Sequence record: NC_025824.1
Length of the DNA stretch: 6,408 nt
DNA from: Escherichia phage fd
Reading direction: 5' to 3' (one strand)
In this document: positions 1 through 6,408 of the stretch, piece by piece
How the letters are laid out: each line of letters starts with the position of its first letter
Position numbering within the stretch: position 1 is the stretch's first letter
The notes under the pieces: generated by a model
What the model was told of the DNA's origin: nothing
Databases searched by the model: none
Seen by the model: the letters and a program-made list of their open reading frames with translations, nothing else
Made by a program: the position numbers and the translations under genes

Positions 1-831
1 AACGCTACTACCATTAGTAGAATTGATGCCACCTTTTCAGCTCGCGCCCCAAATGAAAATATAGCTAAACAGGTTATTGACCATTTGCGAAATGTATCTA
101 ATGGTCAAACTAAATCTACTCGTTCGCAGAATTGGGAATCAACTGTTACATGGAATGAAACTTCCAGACACCGTACTTTAGTTGCATATTTAAAACATGT
201 TGAACTACAGCACCAGATTCAGCAATTAAGCTCTAAGCCATCCGCAAAAATGACCTCTTATCAAAAGGAGCAATTAAAGGTACTGTCTAATCCTGACCTG
301 TTGGAATTTGCTTCCGGTCTGGTTCGCTTTGAGGCTCGAATTGAAACGCGATATTTGAAGTCTTTCGGGCTTCCTCTTAATCTTTTTGATGCAATTCGCT
401 TTGCTTCTGACTATAATAGACAGGGTAAAGACCTGATTTTTGATTTATGGTCATTCTCGTTTTCTGAACTGTTTAAAGCATTTGAGGGGGATTCAATGAA
501 TATTTATGACGATTCCGCAGTATTGGACGCTATCCAGTCTAAACATTTTACAATTACCCCCTCTGGCAAAACTTCCTTTGCAAAAGCCTCTCGCTATTTT
601 GGTTTCTATCGTCGTCTGGTTAATGAGGGTTATGATAGTGTTGCTCTTACCATGCCTCGTAATTCCTTTTGGCGTTATGTATCTGCATTAGTTGAGTGTG
701 GTATTCCTAAATCTCAATTGATGAATCTTTCCACCTGTAATAATGTTGTTCCGTTAGTTCGTTTTATTAACGTAGATTTTTCCTCCCAACGTCCTGACTG
801 GTATAATGAGCCAGTTCTTAAAATCGCATAA
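1..831 (+). CDS. II: Replication initiation endonuclease gpII, 3' portion (CDS wraps across the window ends; 5' portion at 6007..6408)
   Basis: Open frame in phase 1 from base 1 to the TAA at 829..831. The ORF track's 85..831 is the same frame begun at an internal TTG. Frame is continuous with 6007..6408 if the window is circular, giving 1233 nt = 410 aa, the known size of Ff gpII. Sequence recognised as Ff gene II. Confidence 0.93.
   Translation, partial: NATTISRIDATFSARAPNENIAKQVIDHLRNVSNGQTKSTRSQNWESTVTWNETSRHRTLVAYLKHVELQHQIQQLSSKPSAKMTSYQKEQLKVLSNPDLLEFASGLVRFEARIETRYLKSFGLPLNLFDAIRFASDYNRQGKDLIFDLWSFSFSELFKAFEGDSMNIYDDSAVLDAIQSKHFTITPSGKTSFAKASRYFGFYRRLVNEGYDSVALTMPRNSFWRYVSALVECGIPKSQLMNLSTCNNVVPLVRFINVDFSSQRPDWYNEPVLKIA
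496..831 (+). CDS. X: gpX, in-frame internal restart within gene II (identical to the C-terminal 111 aa of gpII); replication regulator
   Basis: ATG at 496..498 is in the gene II frame and shares its stop at 829..831 (336 nt, 111 aa). Product begins MNIYDDSAVLDAIQSK. Established Ff gene X architecture. Confidence 0.85.
   Translation: MNIYDDSAVLDAIQSKHFTITPSGKTSFAKASRYFGFYRRLVNEGYDSVALTMPRNSFWRYVSALVECGIPKSQLMNLSTCNNVVPLVRFINVDFSSQRPDWYNEPVLKIA
799..807 (+). promoter_or_regulatory. Candidate extended -10 promoter element (TGgTATAAT) upstream of gene V
   Basis: TG at 799..800 and TATAAT at 802..807, about 35 nt upstream of the gene V ATG. No good -35 hexamer seen. Ff phages are known to have a promoter in front of gene V, but the exact placement here is my inference. 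Confidence 0.35.
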
Positions 832-842
832 GGTAATTCAAA

Positions 843-1106
843 ATGATTAAAGTTGAAATTAAACCGTCTCAAGCGCAATTTACTACCCGTTCTGGTGTTT
901 CTCGTCAGGGCAAGCCTTATTCACTGAATGAGCAGCTTTGTTACGTTGATTTGGGTAATGAATATCCGGTGCTTGTCAAGATTACTCTCGACGAAGGTCA
1001 GCCAGCGTATGCGCCTGGTCTGTACACCGTGCATCTGTCCTCGTTCAAAGTTGGTCAGTTCGGTTCTCTTATGATTGACCGTCTGCGCCTCGTTCCGGCT
1101 AAGTAA
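843..1106 (+). CDS. V: gpV, single-stranded DNA-binding protein (87 aa)
   Basis: ORF 843..1106, product MIKVEIKPSQAQFTTRSGVSRQGKPYSLNEQLCYVDLGNEY..., recognised as Ff gene V protein. Shine-Dalgarno-like AAGGT at 830..834. Confidence 0.97.
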   Translation: MIKVEIKPSQAQFTTRSGVSRQGKPYSLNEQLCYVDLGNEYPVLVKITLDEGQPAYAPGLYTVHLSSFKVGQFGSLMIDRLRLVPAK

Positions 1107-3196: not shown

Positions 3197-4243
3197 ATGG
3201 CTGTTTATTTTGTAACTGGCAAATTAGGCTCTGGAAAGACGCTCGTTAGCGTTGGTAAGATTCAGGATAAAATTGTAGCTGGGTGCAAAATAGCAACTAA
3301 TCTTGATTTAAGGCTTCAAAACCTCCCGCAAGTCGGGAGGTTCGCTAAAACGCCTCGCGTTCTTAGAATACCGGATAAGCCTTCTATTTCTGATTTGCTT
3401 GCTATTGGTCGTGGTAATGATTCCTACGACGAAAATAAAAACGGTTTGCTTGTTCTTGATGAATGCGGTACTTGGTTTAATACCCGTTCATGGAATGACA
3501 AGGAAAGACAGCCGATTATTGATTGGTTTCTTCATGCTCGTAAATTGGGATGGGATATTATTTTTCTTGTTCAGGATTTATCTATTGTTGATAAACAGGC
3601 GCGTTCTGCATTAGCTGAACACGTTGTTTATTGTCGCCGTCTGGACAGAATTACTTTACCCTTTGTCGGCACTTTATATTCTCTTGTTACTGGCTCAAAA
3701 ATGCCTCTGCCTAAATTACATGTTGGTGTTGTTAAATATGGTGATTCTCAATTAAGCCCTACTGTTGAGCGTTGGCTTTATACTGGTAAGAATTTATATA
3801 ACGCATATGACACTAAACAGGCTTTTTCCAGTAATTATGATTCAGGTGTTTATTCATATTTAACCCCTTATTTATCACACGGTCGGTATTTCAAACCATT
3901 AAATTTAGGTCAGAAGATGAAATTAACTAAAATATATTTGAAAAAGTTTTCTCGCGTTCTTTGTCTTGCGATAGGATTTGCATCAGCATTTACATATAGT
4001 TATATAACCCAACCTAAGCCGGAGGTTAAAAAGGTAGTCTCTCAGACCTATGATTTTGATAAATTCACTATTGACTCTTCTCAGCGTCTTAATCTAAGCT
4101 ATCGCTATGTTTTCAAGGATTCTAAGGGAAAATTAATTAATAGCGACGATTTACAGAAGCAAGGTTATTCCATCACATATATTGATTTATGTACTGTTTC
4201 AATTAAAAAAGGTAATTCAAATGAAATTGTTAAATGTAATTAA
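3197..4243 (+). CDS. I: gpI, inner-membrane assembly ATPase (348 aa) with an N-terminal Walker A motif
   Basis: ORF 3197..4243. P-loop GKLGSGKT at residues 8-15 (about 3218..3241). Recognised as Ff gene I. Confidence 0.96.
   Translation: MAVYFVTGKLGSGKTLVSVGKIQDKIVAGCKIATNLDLRLQNLPQVGRFAKTPRVLRIPDKPSISDLLAIGRGNDSYDENKNGLLVLDECGTWFNTRSWNDKERQPIIDWFLHARKLGWDIIFLVQDLSIVDKQARSALAEHVVYCRRLDRITLPFVGTLYSLVTGSKMPLPKLHVGVVKYGDSQLSPTVERWLYTGKNLYNAYDTKQAFSSNYDSGVYSYLTPYLSHGRYFKPLNLGQKMKLTKIYLKKFSRVLCLAIGFASAFTYSYITQPKPEVKKVVSQTYDFDKFTIDSSQRLNLSYRYVFKDSKGKLINSDDLQKQGYSITYIDLCTVSIKKGNSNEIVKCN
3917..4243 (+). CDS. XI: gpXI, in-frame internal restart within gene I (C-terminal 108 aa of gpI); assembly protein
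   Basis: ATG at 3917..3919 is in the gene I frame and shares its stop. Product begins MKLTKIYLKKFSRVLCLAIGFASAF... and is 108 aa, the known size of gpXI. Confidence 0.8.
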   Translation: MKLTKIYLKKFSRVLCLAIGFASAFTYSYITQPKPEVKKVVSQTYDFDKFTIDSSQRLNLSYRYVFKDSKGKLINSDDLQKQGYSITYIDLCTVSIKKGNSNEIVKCN

Positions 4244-5501
4244 TTTTGTTTTCTTGATGTTTGTTTCATCATCTTCTTTTGCTCAAGTAATTGAAATGAA
4301 TAATTCGCCTCTGCGCGATTTCGTGACTTGGTATTCAAAGCAAACAGGTGAATCTGTTATTGTCTCACCTGATGTTAAAGGTACAGTGACTGTATATTCC
4401 TCTGACGTTAAGCCTGAAAATTTACGCAATTTCTTTATCTCTGTTTTACGTGCTAATAATTTTGATATGGTTGGCTCAATTCCTTCCATAATTCAGAAAT
4501 ATAACCCAAATAGTCAGGATTATATTGATGAATTGCCATCATCTGATATTCAGGAATATGATGATAATTCCGCTCCTTCTGGTGGTTTCTTTGTTCCGCA
4601 AAATGATAATGTTACTCAAACATTTAAAATTAATAACGTTCGCGCAAAGGATTTAATAAGGGTTGTAGAATTGTTTGTTAAATCTAATACATCTAAATCC
4701 TCAAATGTATTATCTGTTGATGGTTCTAACTTATTAGTAGTTAGCGCCCCTAAAGATATTTTAGATAACCTTCCGCAATTTCTTTCTACTGTTGATTTGC
4801 CAACTGACCAGATATTGATTGAAGGATTAATTTTCGAGGTTCAGCAAGGTGATGCTTTAGATTTTTCCTTTGCTGCTGGCTCTCAGCGCGGCACTGTTGC
4901 TGGTGGTGTTAATACTGACCGTCTAACCTCTGTTTTATCTTCTGCGGGTGGTTCGTTCGGTATTTTTAACGGCGATGTTTTAGGGCTATCAGTTCGCGCA
5001 TTAAAGACTAATAGCCATTCAAAAATATTGTCTGTGCCTCGTATTCTTACGCTTTCAGGTCAGAAGGGTTCTATTTCTGTTGGCCAGAATGTCCCTTTTA
5101 TTACTGGTCGTGTAACTGGTGAATCTGCCAATGTAAATAATCCATTTCAGACGGTTGAGCGTCAAAATGTTGGTATTTCTATGAGTGTTTTTCCCGTTGC
5201 AATGGCTGGCGGTAATATTGTTTTAGATATAACCAGTAAGGCCGATAGTTTGAGTTCTTCTACTCAGGCAAGTGATGTTATTACTAATCAAAGAAGTATT
5301 GCGACAACGGTTAATTTGCGTGATGGTCAGACTCTTTTGCTCGGTGGCCTCACTGATTACAAAAACACTTCTCAAGATTCTGGTGTGCCGTTCCTGTCTA
5401 AAATCCCTTTAATCGGCCTCCTGTTTAGCTCCCGTTCTGATTCTAACGAGGAAAGCACGTTGTACGTGCTCGTCAAAGCAACCATAGTACGCGCCCTGTA
5501 G
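4221..5501 (+). CDS. IV: gpIV, outer-membrane secretin for phage export (426 aa including a 21-aa signal peptide)
   Basis: ATG at 4221 preceded by AAGGT (4209..4213). Signal peptide MKLLNVINFVFLMFVSSSSFA then QVIEMNNSPLRDF... The ORF track's 4182 start is an upstream in-frame ATG inside gene I. Start overlaps the end of gene I by 23 nt; stop TAG at 5499..5501. Recognised as Ff gene IV. Confidence 0.95.
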   Translation: MKLLNVINFVFLMFVSSSSFAQVIEMNNSPLRDFVTWYSKQTGESVIVSPDVKGTVTVYSSDVKPENLRNFFISVLRANNFDMVGSIPSIIQKYNPNSQDYIDELPSSDIQEYDDNSAPSGGFFVPQNDNVTQTFKINNVRAKDLIRVVELFVKSNTSKSSNVLSVDGSNLLVVSAPKDILDNLPQFLSTVDLPTDQILIEGLIFEVQQGDALDFSFAAGSQRGTVAGGVNTDRLTSVLSSAGGSFGIFNGDVLGLSVRALKTNSHSKILSVPRILTLSGQKGSISVGQNVPFITGRVTGESANVNNPFQTVERQNVGISMSVFPVAMAGGNIVLDITSKADSLSSSTQASDVITNQRSIATTVNLRDGQTLLLGGLTDYKNTSQDSGVPFLSKIPLIGLLFSSRSDSNEESTLYVLVKATIVRAL

Positions 5502-5963: not shown

Positions 5964-6006
5964 CATCCTGTTTTTGGGGCTTTTCTGATTATCAACCGGG
6001 GTACAT

Positions 6007-6408
6007 ATGATTGACATGCTAGTTTTACGATTACCGTTCATCGATTCTCTTGTTTGCTCCAGACTTTCAGGTAATGACCTGATAGCCTTTGTAGACCTCT
6101 CAAAAATAGCTACCCTCTCCGGCATGAATTTATCAGCTAGAACGGTTGAATATCATATTGACGGTGATTTGACTGTCTCCGGCCTTTCTCACCCGTTTGA
6201 ATCTTTGCCTACTCATTACTCCGGCATTGCATTTAAAATATATGAGGGTTCTAAAAATTTTTATCCCTGCGTTGAAATTAAGGCTTCACCAGCAAAAGTA
6301 TTACAGGGTCATAATGTTTTTGGTACAACCGATTTAGCTTTATGCTCTGAGGCTTTATTGCTTAATTTTGCTAACTCTCTGCCTTGCTTGTACGATTTAT
6401 TGGATGTT
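6007..6408 (+). CDS. II: Replication initiation endonuclease gpII, 5' portion (runs off the window end and continues in phase at 1..831)
   Basis: ATG at 6007, open through 6408 (402 nt = 134 codons, no stop). Translates to MIDMLVLRLPFIDSLVCSRLSGNDLIAFVDLSKIATLSGMNLSARTVEYHIDGDLTVSG... Recognised as the gpII N-terminus. Confidence 0.92.
   Translation, partial: MIDMLVLRLPFIDSLVCSRLSGNDLIAFVDLSKIATLSGMNLSARTVEYHIDGDLTVSGLSHPFESLPTHYSGIAFKIYEGSKNFYPCVEIKASPAKVLQGHNVFGTTDLALCSEALLLNFANSLPCLYDLLDV

Follow-up and report, generated by a model that had tools for sequence, protein, structure and literature searches.

A 13-nt sequence shared by the gene V and gene IV translation initiation regions of an fd-type Ff phage

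Results

The window, that is, the whole stretch of DNA analysed here (6,408 nt, Escherichia phage fd, NC_025824.1), is an fd-type Ff genome, with 99.2% identity to FfIris/Copypasta and 97% to f1 and M13. Two of its genes, V and IV, are preceded by an almost identical stretch (table 1); the M13 and f1 records annotate these genes at 843-1106 and 4220-5500, respectively. The original prediction had singled out a 12-mer, AGGTAATTCAAA, directly before the gene V ATG (843) and ending on the A of the gene IV ATG (4221), a placement that the sequence confirms. Exactly two matches had been expected, and a string search of both strands returned two (831-842 and 4210-4221), both on the plus strand and each at a start codon. 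The sequence of the 12-mer stands but its length does not, the exact repeat being 13 nt, AAGGTAATTCAAA, at 830-842 and 4209-4221. At gene V the junction reads ...gcaTAAGGTAATTCAAA followed by ATGattaaa (ATG 843), and at gene IV ...aaaaAAGGTAATTCAA followed by ATGaaattg (ATG 4221). The additional A ahead of the gene V ATG relative to gene IV, likewise predicted, is present, and if a single-A indel is allowed the identity between the two sites continues through ATGA. Apart from the glycine-rich repeats of gene III, AAGGTAATTCAAA is the sole repeated 13-mer of the window. No antisense copy was detected in the genome when both strands were searched, and copies with up to three mismatches amount to 8 against 4.4 expected, a nonsignificant excess. 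Three unrelated exact 12-mer repeats also occur in this genome.

Table 1. Features at the gene V and gene IV starts of the window
Feature	Position	Strand	Remarks
13-mer copy 1, gene V TIR	830..842	+	last two bases of gene II/X stop codon and whole 11-nt II-V spacer
TAA stop of genes II and X	829..831	+	ORF 85..831; overlaps gene V SD UAAGG (829-833)
Gene V, ssDNA-binding protein, 87 aa, PF02303	843..1106	+	ATG 843-845, 9 nt past last G of UAAGG
13-mer copy 2, gene IV TIR	4209..4221	+	wholly within gene I/XI coding sequence; last base is the A of gene IV ATG
Gene IV, secretin, 426 aa	4221..5501	+	PF21305/PF03958/PF00263 in homologues; ATG 4221-4223, 8 nt past last G of AAGG
Gene I, pI, Zot family	3197..4243	+	last 23 nt overlap gene IV

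In keeping with the predicted SD-like element plus A-rich spacer, both copies consist of an SD-like (U)AAGG(U) and an A/U-rich spacer, and form the translation initiation regions (TIRs) of genes V and IV. They adjoin real gene starts, as supported by PF02303 homologues for V and secretin homologues for IV, with the M13/f1 annotation in agreement. The gene V SD, UAAGG, is separated from the ATG by a 9-nt spacer and forms with ACCUCCUUA a duplex of -4.0 kcal/mol; for gene IV, AAGG(U) (4209-4213) and an 8-nt spacer, the value is -3.9 kcal/mol. Both SDs are purine-rich and complementary to the 16S rRNA 3' end, and their spacers fall in the range of about 5-13 nt before the start. The surrounding mRNA is rich in A+U (74-85% from -20 to +13 of the two starts) and poorly folded: the MFEs of the -35..+35 segments, -3.1 (V) and -3.6 (IV) kcal/mol, are the two weakest among 11 genes, and the 81-nt windows at V and IV are less stable than their own shuffles (z of +1.9 and +1.4). 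An Rfam search with the element gave no family match, and promoter and terminator scans around both copies gave no such site overlapping it. An exact-pattern scan of IMG/VR for AAGGTAATTCAA(N)ATG retrieved at least 120 single-copy matches in unrelated large phage contigs; among the matches listed, none of which is an Ff-like genome, a long ORF follows in 40/120, compared with 19% for random ATGs (p=2e-4). The motif thus precedes long ORFs more often than random ATGs do, and so is a workable generic TIR.

The 13-mer identity is exact in fd, FfLilac, FfLavender, and one metagenome contig. In M13, f1, FfViolet, FfAmethyst, and f1_2_FR the gene V copy reads AAGGTAATTCACA, with a C at -2, so that the 12-mer is inexact in these phages and the exact common core is 11 nt. 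FfLavender, equidistant from both Ff clades (~90.6%), retains the A at -2, which shows that the C is derived; with FfLavender as outgroup, the exact 13-mer is the ancestral Ff state. Outside this group the V/IV identity is absent in IKe, I2-2, If1, PEar1, and the metagenomic L125, L133, L131, L134, L135, L127, and L128, one of these seven contigs encoding a pV that is 83% identical. In the four scored relatives (IKe, PEar1, L133, and L128) the V and IV TIRs have no more than 6 nt in common, the remaining seven having been compared by eye from their sequences. The comparison across Ff-like phages that had been proposed as a check is therefore favourable only in part: the core is kept in all Ff examined, yet the M13/f1 gene V copy carries one substitution and the identity is absent in IKe and If1. 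On this distribution, the V/IV identity is confined to the Ff lineage. Within that lineage the conservation of the two 13-mers is unremarkable, 24% of 13-nt windows being invariant in the same panel.

Nucleotide BLAST at a distant setting with the gene V region reaches Ff only, and relatives were found via proteins and their encoding contigs. A pV-based locus search of IMG/VR returned no match, and protein, metagenome, and genome searches found no intermediate genomes in the interval from 83% to about 100% pV identity. Scanning metagenomes and genomes with the 23 conserved nucleotides that open gene V yielded one further Lavender-like Ff (L148), an M13 contaminant (L150), and unrelated genes. 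Two candidate intermediate pV relatives, P0004 and P0006, were rejected as M13-derived fragments.

In relatives the II-V spacers measure 21-90 nt and are unrelated in sequence, with gene V SDs such as TTGGAG (L124-126), TAGGAG (L133), GAGAG (IKe), and GTGGAG (L128). In fd the 13-mer corresponds exactly to the whole spacer plus the AA of the stop codon, a fit suggestive of one discrete remodelling step more than of drift, and, judged from the sequences compared, the gene V copy looks remodelled. The 8-9 nt spacer TAATTCAA(A) is Ff-specific at the V and IV loci simultaneously. A possible AATCG homology among the gene V leaders of fd, L133, and IKe was rejected, these bases being gene II codons in fd and intergenic in the others.

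The gene IV copy, in turn, spans the pI codons AAA GGT AAT TCA AAT (K G N S N), within a conserved pI C-terminal motif, I-D-x-C-x-V-x-I-K-K-G-x-x-N-E-x-V-x-C. The gene IV SD is written in the K-G codons and the ATG in the N-E codons (read in the -1 frame), and both positions are conserved across the clade. Such overlapping I/IV starts, with SD and ATG in pI codons, are conserved in Ff, L125, L131, L133, L135, and If1, whereas in IKe, I2-2, and PEar1 gene I ends just ahead of the gene IV ATG, with no overlap. The arrangement AAGG-N8-ATG within K-G-x-x-N-E, common to Ff, L125, L131, and If1, indicates that the gene IV context is older, and the gene IV copy looks ancestral.

How surprising the repeat is depends on the null model. 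Some repeated 13-mer is present in 41% of Markov-1 random genomes of the same size and composition, and a shuffle test giving 0/200 overstates the rarity, being conditioned on the motif. We thus relied on an RBS-aware null of 501 SD-bearing pseudo-TIRs drawn from the unrelated phage contigs of the IMG/VR scan, with related contigs and the motif itself excluded. A shared run of at least 13 nt at a register offset of at most 2 occurs in 3e-5 of pseudo-TIR pairs, or about 0.002 over the 55 pairs of an 11-gene genome; for the 11-nt shared state of M13/f1 the figure is about 0.018. The next-best TIR pair in fd has 6 nt in common, and the remaining TIR pairs in fd, IKe, PEar1, L133, and L128 have a common run of at most 6-9 nt. 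Two start sites sharing a 13-mer are unusual, and the identity exceeds expectation from shared function alone. Local alignment of the 60-nt flanks of V and IV gave no extended similarity (upstream p=0.70, downstream p=0.18).

Discussion

In this study, we explored a short sequence shared by two start sites of a filamentous phage. It is highly probable that the two copies of the 13-mer are the ordinary SD-led TIRs of genes V and IV in fd-type Ff phages, and that their identity has no function in itself. A short purine core, UAAGG at V and AAGG(U) at IV, would pair weakly with the 16S rRNA 3' end, and the 8-9 nt A/U-rich, G-free spacer would set the AUG in the P site. Since the mRNA around both starts is almost unstructured, 30S subunits would load without an unfolding or coupling step. 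In these respects the two sites resemble the weak-SD, A/U-rich, unstructured TIRs of E. coli and its phages, which are accessibility-driven and assisted by ribosomal protein S1, with a similar SD pairing of 4-5 bp (about -4 kcal/mol) and a G-free spacer. The gene V site fills a shortened II-V spacer, one base of which later changed in the M13/f1 branch, and the gene IV site is held in place by the conserved pI codons (K-G-x-x-N-E). Positions, SD complementarity, mRNA openness, distribution across the phylogeny, and the placement within pI codons are all directly observed; that nothing but the ribosome reads the shared sequence is what we infer. If the V/IV identity does no work of its own, the large gap between pV and pIV output would be set mainly by transcript abundance and downstream context, not by the 13 bases.

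Both sites have a long history. Ribosome-protected f1 sites were reportedly sequenced by Pieczenik, Model and Robertson in 1974, and are said to have been mapped to genes V, VIII, and IV by Ravetch, Horiuchi and Model in 1977; the gene V site was later described, reportedly by Blumer, Ivey and Steege in 1987, as a strong independent initiation site. The sites examined here agree in sequence, coordinates, and SD-type initiation with the classic Ff gene V/IV ribosome-binding sites of the 1970s-80s (Steitz, Gold, and Stormo compilations), with no difference in kind; compared with the classic M13/f1 sites, the fd window has A, not C, at -2 of gene V, and so 13 nt are shared, not 11. Full-text literature searches, with the primary fd/f1 sequence and operator papers outside their scope, found no discussion of the V/IV identity, and the sequence string itself occurred in one unrelated preprint. 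As both are classic ribosome-binding sites, the identity is probably already known, as the original prediction suspected.

That the repeat is a meaningless one, a 13-mer recurring in an AT-rich 6.4-kb genome and functionless at both places, might be defended by the 41% of Markov-1 genomes with a repeated 13-mer and by the unrelated 12-mer repeats of the real genome. Yet both copies end at the starts of two well-established genes and hold their SDs, positions at which a random repeat would fall with a probability of the order of 1e-4, and on account of this placement the reading is effectively refuted. Also very improbable, if somewhat less so, is a shared operator, where one trans factor (the pV repressor, a host protein, or an sRNA) would read the 13-mer on both mRNAs and coordinate pV and pIV translation. 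The excess of identity over the RBS-aware null speaks for it, as does the established role of pV as a translational repressor of gene II via an mRNA operator, GTTTTTGGGGCTTTTC (PMC5405960). This operator, a T/G-tract sequence within the leader of gene II (window positions ~5977-5992), is like the V/IV element an mRNA element beside a start codon of the same phage, but it lies upstream of its SD whereas the V/IV element comprises SD and spacer; AAGGTAATTCAAA does not resemble it, having neither the T-tract nor the G-tract pattern of GTTTTTGGGGCTTTTC. Furthermore, in M13 and f1 the base at -2 of gene V departs from the shared sequence and gene IV has no corresponding change, relatives outside Ff have no V/IV TIR identity, conservation of the 13-mer in Ff is unremarkable given the 24% of invariant windows, and neither an antisense copy in the genome nor an Rfam match is found. 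Zaman et al. in 1991 reportedly observed that translation of genes I, III, V, and X is pV-sensitive and that of IV is not, which would separate the two sites.

The identity of two ordinary TIRs still calls for an origin. The original prediction left the choice between a duplicated and a convergent region, and neither alternative emerges unscathed: the flanks give no positive support for duplication (p=0.70 and 0.18), and chance stands at about 0.002. On balance we slightly favour coincidence or convergence under shared RBS constraints. The RBS-aware null sits awkwardly with this, both for the 13 nt of fd (about 0.002) and for the 11 nt of M13/f1 (about 0.018), and makes plain coincidence uncomfortable, although the observation was chosen post hoc. 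Equally awkward are the spacer TAATTCAA(A), specific to Ff at both loci, and the extent of the repeat, which takes in the entire II-V spacer. These same features lend themselves to a short-patch copy, possible but doubtful in our judgement, by which, in the Ff ancestor, a template switch or microhomology-mediated recombination would have replaced or shortened the II-V spacer and set ~13-16 nt from the start of gene IV (AAGGTAATTCAAATGA) before gene V, with a one-A slip thereafter. Such a copy, a matter of origin that leaves room for ordinary TIR function, would fit the low RBS-aware chance (about 0.002), the exact coverage of the 11-nt spacer and stop-codon AA, the 21-90 nt spacers and different SDs of relatives, the gene IV architecture shared with L125, L131, and If1 (which makes IV the older context), the continuation of identity through ATGA with a 1-nt indel, and the FfLavender outgroup, by which the exact 13-mer is ancestral in Ff. 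Against it, neither flank is similar (p=0.70, 0.18), 13 nt would make a very short recombination patch and an additional indel is required, and no intermediates occupy the range from 83% to about 100% pV identity in the searches made. The observation was also selected post hoc. Coding constraints could have erased the flank similarity of a duplication. As to polarity, relatives conserve the IV context, and the V spacer is peculiar to Ff and unusually short, yet TAATTCAA is Ff-specific at both loci, and the two variable pI codons AAT TCA may just as well derive by conversion from the V site. That the Ff ancestor exchanged its II-V spacer for a copy, 13-16 nt long, of the gene IV start, or that short-patch conversion ran the other way, seems to us rather unlikely.

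Were a copy nonetheless the true origin, a minimal ssDNA phage would have re-used its own ribosome-binding "cassette" for its most abundant non-structural protein, and we would have a documented case in which a translation signal was transplanted within one genome instead of each RBS evolving independently, a small and tidy instance of regulatory-signal re-use in 6.4 kb. Short of that, the consequences for biology at large are small, as both are ribosome-binding sites of the textbook kind and the genome is among the best studied of any phage; we see no sign of a new control element or mechanism, and regard the identity as a curiosity of the Ff group. For M13/fd vector engineering the arrangement has practical implications. 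The gene V signal takes up all of the II-V spacer and shares bases with the gene II/X stop. The gene IV start signal is fixed in the conserved pI C-terminal codons, so that refactoring the I/IV overlap touches signal and codons alike. With the same 13 nt before two genes of very different output, yield in these phages would be set by transcript level and context, and not by SD and spacer alone.

Extent and Register of the Shared Element

The window (6,408 nt) represents the whole genome of an fd-type filamentous phage of the Ff group, 99.2% identical over its full length to FfIris and Copypasta and ~97% to f1 and M13, with the ORF set expected for such a phage. The M13 and f1 records place gene V at 843-1106 and gene IV at 4220-5500; because the window carries an additional base ahead of gene IV, the gene IV ATG falls here at 4221. 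The observation that genes V and IV begin behind the same short string is confirmed and slightly extended: fd shares 13 nt between the two sites, whereas M13 and f1 share 11 nt. The 12-mer of the original prediction has exactly two matches when both strands are searched, both on the + strand, and the exact repeat runs one base further; apart from 13-mers in gene III's glycine-rich repeats, no other is repeated in the window. The gene V copy ends directly 5' of the ATG, while the last A of the gene IV copy is the A of its ATG, a register that bears out the additional A predicted before the gene V start. With a single-A indel allowed, the identity extends through ATGA.

Copies of the 13-mer with up to three mismatches are not enriched in the window (8 found, 4.4 expected). 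One near-copy matches at 10/13 positions; it sits within gene I, 48 nt 5' of the gene IV copy, and no ATG follows it. Three other exact 12-mer direct repeats are unrelated to start codons and consistent with chance, random genomes holding a mean of 2.8 repeated 12-mers. A segment within gene II resembles codons 4-11 of gene V (78% identity over 23 nt), a likeness that is probably fortuitous in an AT-rich genome.

Features of the window bearing on the gene V and gene IV start sites
Feature	Coordinates	Strand	Description
12-mer direct repeat	773-784 / 4858-4869		TAGATTTTTCCT
Predicted 7-bp hairpin	796-802 paired with 810-816		encloses -10-like box
Extended -10-like box	799-807		TGGTATAAT
Gene II/X stop codon	829-831	+	TAA, ORF end
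Gene V SD	829-833		UAAGG
13-mer	830-842 / 4209-4221	+	AAGGTAATTCAAA
12-mer	831-842 / 4210-4221	+	AGGTAATTCAAA
Gene V	from 843	+	87-aa ssDNA-binding protein pV, PF02303
Gene V / gene II likeness	852-874 / 6271-6293		GTTGAAATTAA
12-mer direct repeat	1691-1702 / 3230-3241		TCTGGAAAGACG
Near-copy of 13-mer	4161-4173		AAGGTTATTCCAT
pI C-terminal motif	4181-4243		end of gene I
Gene IV	from 4221	+	secretin pIV
12-mer direct repeat	4425-4436 / 4774-4785		CGCAATTTCTTT

Two Initiation Regions

The gene V copy comprises the final two bases of the II/X stop codon and all 11 nt of the II-V intergenic spacer; its SD overlaps that stop codon, lies 9 nt from the AUG and forms a modest duplex with the 16S 3' end (-4.0 kcal/mol). 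The gene IV copy, with a modest SD duplex of -3.9 kcal/mol, lies wholly within gene I/XI, 23 nt ahead of the gene I stop, where the gene I frame reads AAA GGT AAT TCA AAT GAA (K G N S N E). This belongs to a C-terminal pI motif with two conserved cysteines, I-D-x-C-x-V-x-I-K-K-G-x-x-N-E-x-V-x-C-stop, kept in the translated gene I ends of Ff, the relatives L125, L131, L133 and L135, and If1. The gene IV SD is encoded by the K-G codons (AAA GGT) and the ATG spans the N-E codons (AAT GAA); variation is limited to the pair of x codons that make up the spacer, which are AAT TCA for Ff, GAT TTT for L125 and CGT ATC for L131. Since SD and ATG thus sit within conserved pI codons, the gene IV architecture appears ancestral. 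In IKe, I2-2 and PEar1, unlike Ff, where the gene IV SD and ATG are inside gene I, gene I ends just before the gene IV ATG.

Both leaders are the least structured among 11 phage genes (MFE from -35 to +35 of -3.1 kcal/mol for V and -3.6 kcal/mol for IV), with an A+U content of 74-85%, and the 81-nt segments around V and IV have weaker folds than shuffled versions of the same segments (z of +1.9 and +1.4). All testable features of an SD-type initiation region were found at the two sites. The proposal of a shared ribosome-binding region thus holds as regards the SD and A/U spacer at both starts; as to its being duplicated or convergent, neither is favoured decisively. No Rfam family matched in the window, and scans around both copies revealed no promoter- or terminator-like sites overlapping the element. 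The two elements are the classic Ff ribosome-binding sites: ribosome-protected f1 sites were reportedly sequenced by Pieczenik, Model and Robertson in 1974 and assigned by Ravetch, Horiuchi and Model in 1977 to genes V, VIII and IV, and the compilations of Steitz, Gold and Stormo are said to set the V and IV sites side by side. The gene V site has reportedly been characterised as a strong independent initiation site. Translation of gene VII is coupled to that of gene V (PMC7697814). Full-text searches of openly available literature turned up no discussion of the V/IV identity itself.

Other observations concern gene V. The -10-like box, ~35 nt upstream of its ATG, was missed by the consensus promoter scan because it has no -35 match; it probably corresponds to the promoter already known immediately ahead of gene V. 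An M13-like contig (L143, Logan SRR5681800) has ATT at ~1166-1168 in place of the gene V ATG (CACAATTATTAAAG), so that the gene caller took a start farther upstream, giving an ORF of 117 aa; the contig is probably a mutant or an engineered construct. In four metagenome contigs (L144, L146, L147, and L149) unrelated genes start with the exact first 23 nt of gene V (ATGATTAAAGTTGAAATTAAACC, MIKVEIKP) behind upstream regions entirely unlike that of gene V; these may be distant ssDNA-binding-protein genes.

Conservation within and outside Ff

We aligned eight Ff genomes (fd, FfLilac, FfLavender, M13, f1, FfViolet, FfAmethyst, and f1_2_FR). The gene IV copy is unchanged in all of them; the exact 13-mer occurs at both sites in the first three, and also in a metagenome contig outside the alignment (L148). 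In the other five the gene V leader reads AAGGTAATTCACA, leaving an exact common core of 11 nt with gene IV. The sole variable site within 810-860 in this panel is 841 (-2 of gene V), A in fd, FfLilac and FfLavender and C in the M13/f1/FfViolet/FfAmethyst lineage. FfLavender, ~90.6% identical to both the fd and M13/f1 clades, is equidistant and hence usable as an outgroup; as it carries the exact 13-mer, exact identity is ancestral in Ff and C at -2 derived. The identity was lost on one branch of fully viable phages, with no matching change in gene IV. Invariant 13-nt windows make up 24% of all in the panel, and conservation of the element is unremarkable.

The identity is absent in IKe, PEar1, I2-2, If1, and the relatives L124-126, L127, L128, L131, L133, L134 and L135. 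The cross-phage conservation raised by the original prediction is therefore partial: the core is kept in fd, M13 and f1, whereas the gene V copy of the 12-mer is inexact in M13 and f1 and the V/IV identity is absent in IKe and If1. In the nearest non-Ff relatives found, L124-126, pV is 83% identical to fd pV (no genome with pV identity between 83% and ~100% was found); the first 23 nt of gene V equal those of fd and the leader differs, while homology to the fd leader can be recognised in the gene IV leader of L125. L124 (Logan SRR23874052) has a 90-nt T-rich II-V spacer at 2640-2728, against 11 nt in Ff. The II-V junction is labile among relatives (spacers of 11, 21, 23, 26, and 90 nt, with differing SDs), and the 8 or 9 spacer bases, TAATTCAA(A), are peculiar to Ff at V as well as at IV.

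Leaders of genes V and IV outside Ff
Phage	Gene V	Gene IV
IKe, PEar1	cgagagata(ta)tattATG	gaaggttgattATG
I2-2	ctaaggggttttaaATG	gaaggctaattATG
If1	aaaaggtgtttatATG	ttaaggatgggaaacATG
L124-126	ttattggagtttttcATG, after 90-nt II-V spacer	aaaaaaggtgattttaATG

Origin of the Identity

Among Markov-1 random genomes matched in size and composition, 41% contain some repeated 13-mer; the unusual point is the placement of both copies at start codons, in near register. A result of 0/200 shuffles answers the wrong question, because the shuffles were conditioned on the motif. To allow for the constraints on any ribosome-binding site, we used a null of 501 SD-bearing pseudo-TIRs of long ORFs from ~1 Mb of unrelated AT-rich phage contigs, leaving out related contigs and the shared motif itself. 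An exact shared run of at least 13 nt, with a register offset of at most 2, occurred in 3e-5 of pseudo-TIR pairs, which over the 55 pairs that 11 genes can form gives ~0.002 (0.018 for at least 11 nt). The second-best gene pair of fd has 6 nt in common, and the best pairs in IKe, PEar1, L133 and L128 have 7-9 nt. The coincidence is real but, for an observation chosen post hoc, not overwhelming.

The 15-16 nt motif AAGGTAATTCAA(N)ATG is found as a single copy in each of at least 120 unrelated phage contigs, most of them large (IMG/VR, L004-L123). Among the matches listed, an ORF of at least 60 codons follows in 40/120, against 19% for all ATGs of the same loci (p=2e-4); since the motif precedes ORFs above the ATG background, the string acts as a start site in some of these phages. 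On balance we lean toward coincidence or convergence: an AGG core, a G-poor A/U spacer of 8-9 nt and open surroundings are required at both sites, and the motif is a workable generic TIR, as its occurrence before ORFs in those contigs shows. A short-patch copy of the start region in the Ff ancestor is a less probable, though credible, source: it would fit the 0.002 of the pseudo-TIR null, a repeat coinciding exactly with the entire II-V spacer, and the unusual shortness of that spacer, but the flanks lack any similarity (p=0.70 upstream, 0.18 downstream), the patch is very short, an extra indel is required and the direction is unproven. That a start signal was transplanted within the genome of the Ff ancestor seems to us less likely than not.

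It is very improbable that the shared sequence is read by something besides the ribosome. This phage has a single established translational operator, the target of pV on the mRNA of gene II, GTTTTTGGGGCTTTTC (PMC5405960), which falls within the window's gene II leader; the 13-mer bears no resemblance to it and, on sequence, is not a pV operator. The M13/f1 substitution breaks the V/IV identity, every other lineage compared lacks it, no complementary copy occurs in the window on either strand, and conservation is at an ordinary level; each of these points tells against a shared operator. Zaman et al. reportedly found in 1991 that translation of genes I, III, V and X, not IV, was pV-sensitive in vitro; if so, the two sites would be functionally separate. 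Nothing suggests that the element does more than ordinary initiation: genes V and IV have two ordinary, open, weak-SD, A/U-rich initiation regions, whose shared sequence is a feature already known in kind and confined to the Ff species group.
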